Source: a virus (taxonomy: Duplodnaviria; Heunggongvirae; Uroviricota; Caudoviricetes). Taken from it: a DNA stretch of 5,694 bases. The notes under the pieces are model-generated. The model saw only the letters and a list, made by a program, of their open reading frames with translations. It ran no database searches and was not told the origin of the DNA. Shown here in pieces: positions 1-5,694 of this stretch. The stretch is taken from IMG/VR virus record IMGVR_UViG_2698536559_000015. The stretch is one strand, 5' to 3'. Numbering within the stretch: the first letter of the stretch is position 1; each line of letters begins with the position of its first letter. The position numbers and the translations under genes are program-made.

Positions 1-13
1 ATCTGGAGGTAAC

Positions 14-1069
14 GTGCGGGTATTACTTCGACCTGTTCTGGTACCGGAACTCGGGCTGGTGGTCCTTAAGCCAGGTCGTGAATCCATGCAGGTATTTCAC
101 AATCCTCGAGTGCTGGTGGAGCCGGAACCGAAAAGCATGCGTAATCTGCCGTCCGGGGTCGTTCCTGCCGTTCGCCAGCCGCTGGTGGAAGACAAAACAT
201 TGCTGCCGTTTTTCAGTAACGCACGGGTGATTCGTGCTGCTGGTGGTGCTGGTGCATTGTCTGACTGGCTGTTGCGCCATATTAAATCCTGCCAGTGGCC
301 ACACGGCGATTATCATCACAGCGAAACCGTCATTCACCGTTATGGTACCGGCGCAATGGTGTTGTGCTGGCACTGCGACAACCAGCTGCGTGACCAGACA
401 TCCGAATCACTCGAGCAACTTGCTCATCAAAACCTGTCAGCATGGATGATTGACGCCATCGGTCACGCAATAAGCGGTACGCAGGAGCGTGAATTATCTC
501 TGGCTGAATTATCCTGGTGGGCGGTCCGCAATCAGGTGGCGGACGCGCTACCGGAAGCGGTATTACGTCGTTCGCTGGGGTTGCGTGCGGAAAAAATCCG
601 CTCAGTGTACCGTGAAAGCGACATCGTACCGGGAGAGCAGACCGCCACCAGCATACTGAAGCAGCGCACAAAAAATCTTGCGCCGCTGCCTCACGCCCAC
701 CAGCAAAACCCGCCACAGGAAAAGACGGTGGTCAGCATTGCCGTTGATCCGGAGTCACCGGCTCAGTATCTCCAGCGCCAGAAACCACAACGGGAAGAGA
801 TGCCTGTATACACGCGCTGGGTAAAAACGCAGAAATGCATGACGTGCGGTAATCAGGCAGATGATCCGCATCACATCATTGGTCATGGACTGGGAGGGAT
901 GGGAACAAAGGCTGATGATTTGTTTGTTATTCCGCTGTGCCGTAAATGTCATAACGAACTGCACGCCGGGGTAAAAGATTTTGAAGAAAAACACGGCAGC
1001 CAGCTGTTGTTGCTGATTCGTTTTTTAATGCACGCGAGAAATTCGGGTGTCCTGAAGTGGAAAGCATAA
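14..1069 (+). CDS. DUF968-family lambdoid prophage protein (YdfU-like) with C-terminal Cys/His cluster; true start may lie upstream of the window
   Basis: 351-codon frame open to the window edge (no stop upstream in frame; GTG at 14). C-terminal motif CMTCG...HHIIGHG...CRKCHNELH is typical of DUF968 prophage proteins. Family assignment rests on recalled similarity to E. coli Qin-prophage YdfU, not on a search. Stop TAA 1067-1069 abuts the ATG of the next gene (TAAATG). Confidence 0.8.
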   Translation: MRVLLRPVLVPELGLVVLKPGRESMQVFHNPRVLVEPEPKSMRNLPSGVVPAVRQPLVEDKTLLPFFSNARVIRAAGGAGALSDWLLRHIKSCQWPHGDYHHSETVIHRYGTGAMVLCWHCDNQLRDQTSESLEQLAHQNLSAWMIDAIGHAISGTQERELSLAELSWWAVRNQVADALPEAVLRRSLGLRAEKIRSVYRESDIVPGEQTATSILKQRTKNLAPLPHAHQQNPPQEKTVVSIAVDPESPAQYLQRQKPQREEMPVYTRWVKTQKCMTCGNQADDPHHIIGHGLGGMGTKADDLFVIPLCRKCHNELHAGVKDFEEKHGSQLLLLIRFLMHARNSGVLKWKA

Positions 1070-1447
1070 ATGACTGAGCGCATAGAATTTGTTTTGCCTT
1101 ACCCGCCGTCGGTGAACACCTACTGACGCCGTCGTGGTGGCGTATATTTTGTATCAAAAGCCGGTGAGCGTTATCGCCGGGATGTGGCGCTTATTGTTCG
1201 CCAGCAGCGACTGAAATTAAATCTGTCCGGTAGGTTGGCAATCAGGATTATTGCAGAGCCACCGGATAAGCGCCGCCGCGACCTGGACAATATCCTGAAG
1301 GCACCGCTGGATGCGCTGACACATGCAGGACTGCTTATCGACGATGAGCAGTTTGACGAAATCAATATAGTGCGCGGTTTGCCTGTTCCTGGTGGGCGAC
1401 TGGGCGTGAATATTTTCGTAATAAGAGGTAGTAATGATGGTGCGTGA
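1070..1447 (+). pseudogene. rusA: rusA-like Holliday junction resolvase, interrupted by an in-frame TGA at 1124-1126 (codon 19)
   Basis: ATG 1070 gives MTERIEFVLPYPPSVNTY, then TGA, then the same frame continues RRRGGVYFVSKAGERYRRDVALIVRQQ...DKRRRDLDNILKAPLDALTHAGLLIDDEQ... to TGA 1445-1447. The N-terminal LPxPPS motif and the acidic DLDN...DDEQ region match RusA as I recall it. The stop aligns with a Tyr/Trp position, so a single-base change could have created it. Confidence 0.7.
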
Positions 1448-1805
1448 TATTCAGATGGTTCTTGAGCGGTGGGGGGCATGGGCTGCGAGTGATAGCTCTG
1501 GGGTAGACTATTCACCTATAGCAGCTGGTTTTAAGGGGCTTATGCCGCAGATAAGTAAAACACGAATTTCTTGTACAGACGATGACGCTCTTATCATTGA
1601 GAGCTGCCTTGCTTTACTAAAAAAGAAAAAACCGTACGAACATTCTCTGATTGTGGCTCATTACCTATACGGCATCTCGAAACGGAAGATTGCAAAGGCA
1701 CGCAAAAAAGATGAGAAATTGATACGGATAGAGATCCAGATGGCAGAGGGCTTTATCGATGGCTGTCTCTCAATGCTTGATGTTCGTCTCGAGATGGAAT
1801 TGTGA
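1434..1805 (+). CDS. quuD: Phage late-gene antiterminator Q (QuuD / phage-82-type family)
   Basis: 123-aa ORF starting MMVRDIQMVLERWGAWAA..., matching my recollection of the DLP12 QuuD N-terminus. SD AAGAGG sits about 5 nt upstream; the start overlaps the rusA 3' end by 14 nt; stop TGA 1803-1805. Position after the DUF968 gene and rusA is the canonical nin-region order. Confidence 0.85.
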   Translation: MMVRDIQMVLERWGAWAASDSSGVDYSPIAAGFKGLMPQISKTRISCTDDDALIIESCLALLKKKKPYEHSLIVAHYLYGISKRKIAKARKKDEKLIRIEIQMAEGFIDGCLSMLDVRLEMEL

Positions 1806-1821
1806 ACCTCTTGAATATTCT

Positions 1822-1850
1822 AAACGGCCTAAGGGCCGTTTTATTCTTCT
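1822..1850 (+). terminator. Rho-independent terminator between convergent Q and the minus-strand operon (possibly bidirectional)
   Basis: Stem 1822-1829 (AAACGGCC) pairs with 1834-1841 (GGCCGTTT), loop TAAG, followed by the T-rich run TTTATTCTTCTTT on the + strand. It lies 17 nt after the Q stop and 1 nt from the stop of the - strand gene at 1841. On the - strand the downstream sequence is less U-rich. Confidence 0.7.
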
Positions 1851-2269
1851 TTAGTAACTTCAATAGGTAAAACTTCTACATTCTTACCAATGTTAACAAT
1901 CTTTCTAACAGTTTCTTCCCGATCAGCAATAAGCTCAGCTTTAAATTTCTCGCTTAGATGAGGGCTTTTCAGTTGCTCATCAATACCTTTTAAATCTCTC
2001 TCAAGGCGATTTCTTAGGGCGGCTTCGGCTGGAGACTCAAGTCCATGTCGATTGATAACATACAACATAATGTAGGTTAGCATTGCTGACACTAATGGGG
2101 CGAGGGCATACAAAAAAGCTCTCCATTCACTATTAGGGTCAGGCGCCAATAGTGGTACCAATGTAGTTAGAACTGCGCCAATCCCGCCTGTTGTTAGACC
2201 AGAATTACTACTTAAAATGCTTTTTTTATCACCGCTCATTATTTGACTGCCTGTGCGCGGTTGCATCAT
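1841..2269 (-). CDS. Small membrane protein, two predicted TM helices plus a charged helical C-terminal tail (holin-like topology); third gene of the low-GC operon
   Basis: Minus-strand ORF with stop TAA at 1843-1841. Hydrophobic segments GGIGAVLTTLVPLLA and FLYALAPLVSAMLTYIMLYVI are followed by about 70 charged residues. Start is ambiguous: TTG 2272, ATG 2269/2266, or ATG 2239, the last overlapping the upstream gene stop by 11 nt. No family recognised. Confidence 0.7.
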   Translation of the reverse strand: MMQPRTGSQIMSGDKKSILSSNSGLTTGGIGAVLTTLVPLLAPDPNSEWRAFLYALAPLVSAMLTYIMLYVINRHGLESPAEAALRNRLERDLKGIDEQLKSPHLSEKFKAELIADREETVRKIVNIGKNVEVLPIEVTKEE

Positions 2270-2492
2270 CAATTAGCTCAACGATCTTCTTTCCATCTTT
2301 AGCATCTAAGTGGATAGTAATCGTTTTTTCAAGCATGCGTTCAGCACTGTAAAACCTTAGTTCTACGATTTTTGTAGGAAAAATTTTACGCCACAACAAC
2401 GCGGAACCAGCATAAACAAAGCGATAGAAGGTCGGGAGACTTACAAGCACCCCCAACCAAAAAACGATTTGTAAAAGCTGTTGCTGAATCAT
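2229..2492 (-). CDS. Small (87 aa) membrane protein with one N-terminal TM segment; second gene of the low-GC operon
   Basis: ATG at 2492-2490, stop TGA at 2231-2229. N-terminal hydrophobic stretch LLQIVFWLGVLVSLPTFYRFVYAGSALLW is followed by a roughly 50-aa polar domain. It starts 15 nt after the stop of the upstream gene (TAG 2510-2508). No family recognised. Confidence 0.7.
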   Translation of the reverse strand: MIQQQLLQIVFWLGVLVSLPTFYRFVYAGSALLWRKIFPTKIVELRFYSAERMLEKTITIHLDAKDGKKIVELIDDATAHRQSNNER

Positions 2493-5024: not shown

Positions 5025-5195
5025 ATGTCGATTAAACATTACGATGTTGTCAGGGCGGCGTCGCCGTCAGACCTTGCGGAAAAGCTGACACACAAACTGA
5101 AAGAGGCCTGGCAGCCGTTTGGTAGTCCGGTGGACATAACTCCTTATACCCTGATGCAGGCGATTGCAGCAGAAGGTTATGTGGTGGTCAAGTAA
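5025..5195 (+). CDS. Small (56 aa) phage-associated hypothetical protein, possibly DUF1737-like
   Basis: ATG 5025 preceded by SD GGGAGA at 7-nt spacing. Translation MSIKHYDVVRAASPSDLAEKLTHKLKEAWQPFGSPVDITPYTLMQAIAAEGYVVVK, stop TAA 5193-5195. The family guess comes from memory of small prophage proteins and is weak. Confidence 0.55.
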   Translation: MSIKHYDVVRAASPSDLAEKLTHKLKEAWQPFGSPVDITPYTLMQAIAAEGYVVVK

Positions 5196-5371
5196 TACTG
5201 GCCACCGTTACCCAGAAACTGAATGGAGTTGCAGGTTCGGCACTCCAGGTCATAAAAGACAGTCTGACACTGAGCCTGAATGCGCTGACGCTGACGGATG
5301 TTACAAAAAGTGCAGCGTATGGCGTTGAGATAGAAAGTCTGGTGCTGGAGATGAATGCACCGGCAGCATAA
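5126..5371 (+). other. Coding-like open frame with no canonical start codon, overlapping and extending past the 56-aa ORF; possible frameshifted gene remnant
   Basis: Frame 2 is open from the TAG at 5123-5125 to TAA 5369-5371 and reads ...ILATVTQKLNGVAGSALQVIKDSLTLSLNALTLTDVTKSAAYGVEIESLVLEMNAPAA. It has protein-like composition but no ATG, GTG or TTG until near its end. Confidence 0.3.
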
Positions 5372-5379
5372 TAAAAAAG

Positions 5380-5409
5380 AGCCAGCGCCCACTCTGAAGG
5401 ACGCTGGCT
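5380..5409 (-). terminator. GC-rich stem-loop flanked by A-tracts on the + strand (a hairpin plus T-tract on the - strand); copy 1 of a tandem unit
   Basis: AGCCAGCG (5380-5387) pairs with CGCTGGCT (5402-5409), loop about 14 nt. Preceded by AAAAAAG and followed by AAAAGG on the + strand, so it reads as an intrinsic terminator only for - strand transcripts. Confidence 0.35.
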
Positions 5410-5524
5410 AAAAGGCCTTATATGTTTGTAGAGACTTATTTTTCACAGACAGCAATGATGTCTGTCAATATATTATCAATATGCGGATTGTTTCAGTTAC
5501 AGATGCTTTATTAAAGAAAAAAAC

Positions 5525-5559
5525 AGCCAGCACTGACTTTCGGTGGAGAGGTGCTGGCT
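5525..5559 (-). terminator. Second copy of the GC-rich stem-loop flanked by A-tracts (tandem unit copy 2)
   Basis: AGCCAGCAC (5525-5533) pairs with GTGCTGGCT (5551-5559), loop about 17 nt. Preceded by GAAAAAAAC and followed by CAAAAGG, the same arrangement as copy 1. Confidence 0.35.
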
Positions 5560-5676
5560 CAAAAGGATAGATGGACTTCACATGTTGCTTCTATATGGCG
5601 GTACATTTTCTGACAGACAGTGACGGATGTTGTCAAGATATTGTGTCATTTATAACCTGAATCAGGGGAGGCCGGA

Positions 5677-5694
5677 ATGTTATCTGGCATTTTT
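5677..5694 (+). CDS. Possible 5' end of a downstream gene (MLSGIF...), truncated by the window edge
   Basis: ATG 5677 preceded by a strong SD AGGGGAGG at about 6-nt spacing. Only 6 codons are visible, so identity is unknown. Confidence 0.3.

Follow-up and report, generated by a model that had tools for sequence, protein, structure and literature searches.

The stretch of DNA analyzed here, a 5,694-nt window of the virus record IMGVR_UViG_2698536559_000015 (Caudoviricetes), carries genes of the nin region, the antiterminator gene Q, an AT-rich three-gene cassette in the opposite orientation, a conserved noncoding block, a tRNA cluster, and a set of lysis-proximal genes, and several of these genes are broken. 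Comparison with related loci suggests that the window is probably the nin-Q-late promoter-cargo (late-control) region of a lambda-like Escherichia coli prophage, put together when three exchangeable blocks recombined. The preliminary description of this DNA had read the same mixture of broken and intact genes as the sign of a cryptic prophage, decaying under relaxed selection around a host-beneficial cassette and intact tRNAs; its observations were largely right, and so was its view that the cassette is selected, though for the wrong reason. The window was 100% identical across its entire length to its source contig, DBKJRJ010000039.1 (locus L014; an 11.7-kb draft contig), and 100% identical to a second locus, L022, over 606-5694; accessions of the fragments that it encodes give E. 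coli as the organism. None of the 5,426 complete E. coli genomes or 50,697 phage records searched covered at least 80% of the window at one place, which reveals its mosaic makeup. Lesion states were compared among 22 loci, per-segment identities among 14 loci, and cassette single-nucleotide polymorphisms (SNPs) among 19 loci.

The first block (1 to ~1435) is a nin-region arm, comprising an intact DUF968/YdfU HNH-type gene of 351 amino acids (aa) on the plus strand (14..1069; PF06147, E=3.5e-64; phrog_96), free of stops and 82 to 100% identical at the amino acid level in relatives, and a rusA allele that bears a UGA codon (1070..1447, plus strand), recognized from its translation and, once repaired, from a match to the Pfam RusA family (E=1.3e-15). 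The second (~1436 to ~3600) holds the intact gene Q, of the PF06530 family (1434..1805, plus strand; Pfam E=5.3e-52), the reversed AT-rich cassette, and the conserved noncoding block (3476..3575, plus strand). In the open reading frame (ORF) list, the cassette consists of gene C (132 aa; 1841..2239), gene B (87 aa; 2229..2492), and gene A (293 aa; 2508..3389), all on the minus strand, and a terminator scan placed a GC-rich, terminator-like hairpin at 1822..1841, between the convergent Q and cassette genes. The third block (~3600 to 5694), whose first tRNA gene is separated from gene A by a 296-nt spacer, consists of the tRNA cluster and lysis-proximal cargo, namely, a stopped tciA gene, tciB, an STnc100-like small RNA (sRNA), and the two ends of nanS-p. 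Assignment to a lambdoid late region is supported on both sides of Q: the nin-type genes lie ahead of it, and a lysis cassette and terminase genes lie 3' of it in L014.

Lambdoid phages swap functional blocks at shared linkers, the modular mosaicism described by Hendrix, Casjens, and colleagues, and the window shows the same sharp breaks in identity at module boundaries, at ~1435 and within 3588-3611. The left edge of the second block lies at ~1436, the last mismatch in the flank being at 1435 in L001, L003, and L004. The left 3.6 kb of the window differed from L006 and L008 at 4 positions, and this match ended by 3612 at the latest, a position that differs in every Q-cassette locus that reaches it without being 100% identical to the window. 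Approached from the other side, L013, L015, and L018 showed their last mismatch to the window at 3587 and matched from 3588 on, and the right arm of ~2,100 bases differed from that of L015 at 2 positions. The last mismatch at 3587 and the first at 3612 place the crossover within the interval 3588..3611 on the mismatch maps. Q, the cassette, and the intergenic DNA were 99.3 to 100% identical in 14 E. coli-type loci (100% for the Q protein at the amino acid level), whereas DUF968 was 84 to 100% and rusA 86 to 100% identical; in 19 loci the Q-cassette block as a whole was at least 99.7% identical. The same block thus occurs on backbones whose flanking genes are merely 84 to 88% identical, as is typical of lambdoid mosaicism. 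The one particular feature is the exchange of pseudogene alleles inside the blocks; otherwise, we saw no essential difference.

Among the broken genes, the nonsense codon reported in rusA was confirmed: G1126A has turned codon 19 (1124-1126) into TGA, whereas TGG stands in 16/16 relatives with an intact gene, so that no full-length RusA frame remains. Within the 22 loci, this stop was shared only by L006, L008, L014, and L022; it was also found in L041, and L006, L008, and L041 have different right arms. The nin region is dispensable in lambda, as the nin5 deletion shows, and rusA is accessory because it lies in this region. The stop stands at a former Trp codon in the context UGA-C (1124-1127). 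UGA stop codons are leaky, and read-through by tRNA-Trp is known; since such read-through would restore wild-type RusA, this may be a leaky allele instead of a null one.

In the right arm, the tciA/terB pseudogene (4099..4531, plus strand; TerB, E=5.7e-9; phrog_632) had been described as carrying both a frameshift and a nonsense mutation, and only the second part of this claim holds without qualification. A TAG at 4235-4237, where intact relatives have GAG, interrupts the TerB/TciA frame at codon 45 of 142, and among the 22 loci it was common only to L002, L015, L014, and L022. The frameshift exists only in comparison with the 143-aa, ATG-start form of phages JLK-2012 and Evi, which have a run of six adenines (A6) where the window has seven (A7, at 4117-4123). 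A7 was present in 11/11 related loci that carry the tciA/terB module, for which gene callers and the NCBI Prokaryotic Genome Annotation Pipeline (PGAP) annotate a 142-aa protein that starts at the TTG at 4103; in the closed RefSeq genome of L002, PGAP flagged terB for an "internal stop" alone. The presence of A7 in all 11 loci indicates that the frameshift is old and shared, and it is possibly a harmless polymorphism, so that the stop is the sole unambiguous lesion of the gene. A good Shine-Dalgarno sequence, AAGGA, is found at 4086-4090 ahead of the ATG at 4099, which A7 puts out of the TerB frame; the annotated TTG start overlaps this ATG, and the arrangement is the same in 11/11 relatives. 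Slippage on the A-run and use of the TTG start are indistinguishable as routes to terB expression. The gene is followed on the plus strand by an intact 55-aa tciB/DUF3927 gene (4528..4695; PF13064, E=1.2e-16; phrog_1470). Between tciB and the nanS-p remnant sits a match to the STnc100 sRNA family (4700..4886, plus strand; Rfam RF02076, 114.4 bits, E=2.5e-25), with a terminator at 4911-4929; this stretch was 88.5% identical in the O55/O157-type prophage L002 and 99.4 to 100% identical in the L013 group.

The start-less frame that had been noted after 5195 proved to be the 3' remnant of a deleted nanS-p gene. The 5' remnant is a 56-aa DUF1737 ORF (5025..5195, plus strand; PF08410, E=4.2e-14) that aligns to residues 1 to ~55 of the 616- to 617-aa NanS-p proteins of L002 and L023, and the start-less frame (5198..5371, plus strand; 57 codons and a stop), which is out of frame with it, corresponds to the final ~57 codons of a 616-aa NanS-p/SASA esterase (phrog_143 positions 576-631 of 634). 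Residues ~56 to 559, including the entire SASA domain, have been deleted (~1.5 kb), and a 10-nt filler lies at the junction (5191-5200). Among deposited phages, Evi is without nanS-p, and vB_EcoS-813R8, which is without tciA, has a separate internal nanS-p deletion with another junction; the collapse of nanS-p seems to be recurrent. The locus of vB_EcoS-813R8 (L048, 6605-6966) keeps the same two ends of the gene, that is, the DUF1737 part and the last ~50 codons. The genes tciA and tciB are P1-type cargo, and nanS-p encodes an esterase of benefit to the host. The label of "ancestral lambdoid genes" that the preliminary description had given to the lesioned set does not fit tciA and nanS-p, which are not core genes but accessory cargo that deposited phages lack or carry in collapsed form; rusA, tciA, and nanS-p are all accessory and dispensable.

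Of the three tRNA genes on the plus strand, two are intact, and the earlier description of "intact tRNAs" holds for these. The first, with a CAT anticodon (3686..3761; tRNA-Ile in relatives), and the last, tRNA-Arg(TCT) (3852..3926, followed by a terminator at 3942-3959), are canonical in ARAGORN and score 72.5 and 65.4 bits, respectively, against the Rfam tRNA model (RF00005); the first is also annotated by PGAP in L001 and L002. The middle gene (3763..3838) is degenerate, consistent with its earlier listing as atypical. With 28.2 bits it falls short of the gathering score of 29; it has C rather than U at position 33, a D stem of 2 bp after a 1-nt deletion, and a T-stem mismatch, and is without PGAP annotation in L002, although ARAGORN still calls it tRNA-Lys(TTT). 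Its homologue in L016, a tRNA-Arg(TCG), scores 44.4 bits. A role for the middle tRNA as a suppressor of the UGA and UAG stops was ruled out by its UUU anticodon. A promoter-like sequence, TTGCAA-17-TATTAT, lies at 3648-3676, 10 nt 5' of the first tRNA gene, and is common to the L013 and L002 modules; judged by its sequence and position, it could drive the tRNA genes without Q. AGA and AGG account for 10/22 arginine codons of the cassette, versus 1/25 in DUF968, and the tRNA-Arg(UCU) gene lies 460 nt away; a codon usage link between the phage tRNAs and the cassette was rejected as too weak, and ATA is not enriched.

The lesions are real, as the preliminary description held. That they could be sequencing or assembly errors, such as a miscalled homopolymer in the A-run or collapsed nanS-p reads, was worth considering because the source contig is short (11.7 kb) and of draft quality and one lesion falls within a homopolymer of seven adenines, but we regard this as highly improbable. 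The window agrees at 100% with two assemblies, and all the alleles are also found elsewhere. Eleven contigs carry the fragment with the rusA stop; they come from isolates, from independent read assemblies (Logan and ENA), and from metagenomes, and they include two complete genomes (CP117620 and CP117615). The terB TAG is the annotated "internal stop" of a closed RefSeq genome. Truncated proteins of nearly the same sequence are encoded on hundreds of contigs: the exact 48-aa TerB fragment produced by the stop was on 6 contigs and a near-identical 48-aa form on 802, and the exact 56-aa DUF1737 ORF was on 53 contigs with at least three different Q backbones, with a second 56-aa form of the same 90% cluster on 489. 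A7, finally, is present in all 11 related loci.

The distribution of these alleles also indicates where the lesions came from. L006 and L008, the nearest relatives of the left part of the window, already carry the rusA stop. In L015, the nearest relative of the right arm, the terB stop, the A7 run, the nanS-p deletion, and the degenerate tRNA are all present already, although its Q is another one and its cassette is diverged. Comparison of the loci thus indicates that each lesion predates the recombination that made the present arrangement and that the lesions travel with the blocks. Because the lesions are present in the nearest relative of their own block, none is evidence of decay in this prophage, and the idea that the genes decayed in situ is not supported. 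The pattern is explained by modular recombination between lambdoid prophages, in which pseudogene alleles of accessory genes change hands, and as a finding it is an ordinary one.

A cryptic prophage, decaying under relaxed selection and kept by its host for the beneficial cassette and tRNAs, was the alternative that the preliminary description had preferred. Three genes and one tRNA with lesions lie within 5.7 kb, the cassette is under purifying selection (see below), and the cassette was found in no deposited phage genome at the DNA or protein level, all of which would agree with that account. Two further facts speak for it and against ours: the close relative L008, which shares the left arm, shows plain signs of degradation, with IS66 and effector genes replacing head genes, and the source prophage is known over 11.7 kb, so that genes for integrase, replication, or tail functions may have been lost from it. 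Within these 11.7 kb, however, only rusA, tciA, and nanS-p, all of them accessory, are broken; downstream of the window, L014 continues with a normal-length holin gene, DUF1327, lysozyme, Rz, HNH, and TerS genes, and the start of TerL. The lesions hit only dispensable cargo and nin genes, all of them were inherited with recombined blocks, and Q and the candidate late promoter are intact, as are the genes for lysis and terminase. An identical cassette is found in an apparently complete int-to-J prophage of strain AMSHJX01, whose sole pseudogene is a fimbrial moron, and the absence of the cassette from 50,697 phage records is unsurprising, as it is carried by only 20/5426 complete E. coli genomes. 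A fimbrial-protein moron adjoining paa is frameshifted or truncated in otherwise complete-looking prophages (L053, 15780-16313; L002, 255-723), a further case of a cargo pseudogene in these phages. The domestication of defective prophages was reportedly set out by Bobay and colleagues in PNAS in 2014. The window resembles such cases in having pseudogenes beside conserved genes under purifying selection in a prophage, but differs in that its lesions are older than the arrangement and that no essential phage function has been shown to be lost. We therefore consider the cryptic-prophage reading unproven and unlikely, and a dependence of the cassette on domestication is not supported, as it also occurs in an apparently complete prophage and its slot holds cargo in deposited phages.

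Recombination of ready-made blocks leaves the question of whether the cassette is selected. That Q and the AT-rich operon are intact, as originally described, was confirmed, and the cassette is retained undisrupted in 14/14 loci and 20/20 complete genomes. The contrast between intact and broken genes, which had been offered as indirect support for selection, has no weight: the second block is near-identical throughout, and its 296 nt of noncoding DNA are as unchanged as the cassette, so that intactness is no evidence of selection; at a divergence of at most 0.3%, almost no disruptive mutations would be expected. Selection on the cassette is nevertheless shown by other evidence, namely, pN far below pS, the SNP pattern, and the recurrence of the architecture across genera. 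In comparison with the Enterobacter copy, pN/pS was 0.057/0.65 for A, 0.118/0.612 for B, and 0.110/0.756 for C. The 19 E. coli-type loci showed 6 SNP sites in the cassette, 5 synonymous and 1 nonsynonymous; by a binomial estimate, at most one nonsynonymous change of six has a P of ~0.008 if 72% of changes are nonsynonymous. Homologues of protein A were found across Enterobacterales at 95% down to 31% identity and with lengths of 287 to 295 aa, and the A-B-C architecture recurs in Serratia, Enterobacter, Klebsiella, and a diverged E. coli variant (A 29% identical), the small ORFs being only partly called in a group with 57% identity. The exact C protein was on 731 contigs and the exact B protein on 816, with few truncated forms of either, and the exact A protein was listed in 1,227 blocks of the collection searched; disruption is thus rare. 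An 81-aa gene that was uncalled in L019 and L021 is a caller omission, since the DNA is 100% identical to that of L013. Taken together, these comparisons show purifying selection on the cassette over the long term and its tight linkage to the PF06530 Q family. Its GC content is 39 to 41%, compared with 50 to 58% in the flanks; low GC persists in the Klebsiella and Enterobacter copies and is partly shared by the adjacent Q gene, and its presence in other hosts means that it is no sign of a recent arrival.

What the cassette does is suggested mainly by protein A. A matched the NCBIfam model NF053583, LAPAL_fam ("putative phage structural protein"), at 190.1 bits (cutoff, 60) and the PADLOC model PDLC05015 for PDC-S42 at an E value of 4.1e-27 over 282/293 residues; its diverged homologues all matched PDLC05015 as well (E=1e-35 to 3e-53). 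PDC systems are untested candidates predicted by guilt-by-embedding (Payne et al. 2024, bioRxiv 10.1101/2024.01.29.577857). Literature searches for "PDC-S42" or "LAPAL motif" returned nothing. In a hydropathy scan, a hydrophobic segment at residues ~41 to 63 was present in every copy of C, including that in the window; an N-terminal hydrophobic segment scored 1.61 to 2.37 in five homologues of B, and a hydrophobic, glycine-rich stretch at ~86 to 104 was seen in most homologues of A, with the B and A proteins of the window just below the threshold of 1.6. The three genes look like one unit. The "S" of PDC-S42 presumably denotes a single-gene system; in that respect the cassette would differ, as two genes for small membrane proteins accompany gene A in most contexts.

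The likeliest function of the cassette, to which we give somewhat less than an even chance, is superinfection exclusion or abortive infection: lysogens would express it from the prophage, and A, as a member of the PDC-S42 family, would act as a sensor or regulator and the small membrane proteins B and C as effectors, in analogy to RexA/RexB. The RexA/RexB operon of lambda is a prophage-borne exclusion operon. The likeness is one of architecture only, that is, a prophage operon outside the late operon that encodes a largely soluble protein of ~290 aa and one or more small membrane proteins. Alternatively, the cassette could serve the phage itself, as a virion or structural component or as a regulator of lysis or late transcription beside Q. 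The LAPAL_fam family name points this way, as do the strict linkage, seen in four genera, between the cassette and Q with the late promoter region and the possibility that the small membrane proteins resemble holin- or antiholin-like factors. On the other hand, transcription of the cassette runs counter to the late operon and lies outside it, apart from the structural genes, and relatives with the same Q family are without it or hold unrelated cargo in the slot, so that the phage cycle does not require it. A three-gene homologue with 31% identity lies outside any prophage (L031, 3951-8214; metagenome contig ERZ928167), near a gene for Mob_Pre and one whose product has weak CARF/PD-(D/E)xK matches. 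Neither blastn in distant mode nor tblastn of A found the cassette in 50,697 phage records; its 3' intergenic block alone was matched. Its position, orientation, non-prophage homologue, and absence from phage records give a structural role of the LAPAL_fam kind no apparent support, and we think a benefit to the phage distinctly unlikely. The neighbors of the L031 homologue are, besides Mob_Pre, a 294-aa protein and a 531-aa protein, the latter with the weak PADLOC matches (E=2e-6).

The linkage of the cassette to Q extends to the noncoding block 3476..3575. In every prophage context examined, the cassette lay directly 3' of, and convergent with, a PF06530 Q gene, and the block lay ~90 to 190 nt upstream of gene A. 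Its elements are, in order, AAAATCACTAACGCGGTCCGCA, 15 nt, TGTTAAGAGTGGT, and a hairpin with a T-run, the inverted repeat GCGGTCCGC preceding TGTTAAGAGTGGT, and they are kept across loci of E. coli, Enterobacter, Klebsiella, and Serratia. In a motif scan, the block motif occurred exactly once in each of 32 loci with a PF06530-type Q but neither in loci with other Q types nor at the non-prophage homologue. This conservation and co-occurrence with the Q family make the block a candidate for the cognate late promoter/qut site of Q, with tR'. The stretch that separates Q from its presumed target would then be a protected cargo slot, whose contents would be coinherited with a coadapted Q/target pair. 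Deposited phages are consistent with such a slot. In PhiR49_2, the block follows immediately after Q with no cargo between them, whereas reversed cargo of other kinds occupies the same site in cdtI (147 aa and a 313-aa DUF6731 protein), mEp390 (272 aa; mEp390_047 matches PADLOC TIR-TM, E=1.6e-57), and SfIV (IS1, 108 aa, and 356 aa). The annotation of mEp390 places bidirectional terminators at the equivalent of the hairpin at 1822-1841. This presence-absence polymorphism at one site and the atypical base composition are two traits of morons that the cassette shows.

In lambdoid and Stx phages, the cargo known from the region between Q and the lysis genes includes stx, the ileZ-argN-argO tRNAs, nanS-p, and P1-type tciA/tciB. 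The right arm of the window, with its tRNA cluster, tciA/tciB, and nanS-p upstream of holin, conforms to this scheme, and the cassette shares with such morons an atypical GC content, a terminator-like hairpin, and presence-absence polymorphism. It differs in being reversed and upstream of the candidate late promoter, which places it, unlike stx, outside the late transcript. A literature search for a Q-proximal defense hotspot in lambdoid phages found only papers on the hotspots of P2 and P4. Those hotspots (PMC9122126) are similar in having a fixed slot with conserved phage flanks, alternative cargo, and defense-type matches (here TIR-TM and PDC-S42), but they belong to another phage family and another slot, and the five occupants examined here are known from sequence alone. 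That A, B, and C form a new, three-component, membrane-linked defense system, and that the gap between Q and the late promoter is an undescribed cargo or defense hotspot of enterobacterial lambdoid phages, is a possibility that we advance tentatively, with less confidence than the exclusion function itself.

Four observations weigh against parts of this account. Proteins B and C had no match in Pfam, NCBIfam, or PADLOC. The noncoding block has no clear -35/-10 pair, its reading as a promoter/qut site being based on position and co-occurrence with Q, and a consensus promoter scan found none for the cassette on the minus strand upstream of 3389. In L015, the variant gene A (7530-8398) has a 10-nt frameshifting deletion, with B and C intact, which shows that loss of the cassette can occur.

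Our results bear on how broken and intact genes in prophages are to be read. Mosaic prophages with lesioned accessory genes are ordinary for lambdoid phages, pseudogene alleles can arrive ready-made with recombined modules, and intact genes beside broken ones do not attest to selection if their block was imported recently and is nearly identical. Two modest leads emerge from the comparison. One is a conserved three-gene operon, under strong purifying selection and found across prophages of Enterobacterales, whose protein A belongs to an untested family of defense candidates. The other is the site between Q and its presumed target, which holds other cargo in deposited phages and could be mined for new prophage-borne functions. 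If this reading of the site is true, the cargo of the slot, including the TIR-TM gene of mEp390 and the DUF6731 pair of cdtI as well as the cassette described here, would be genetically locked to a coadapted Q/qut pair.

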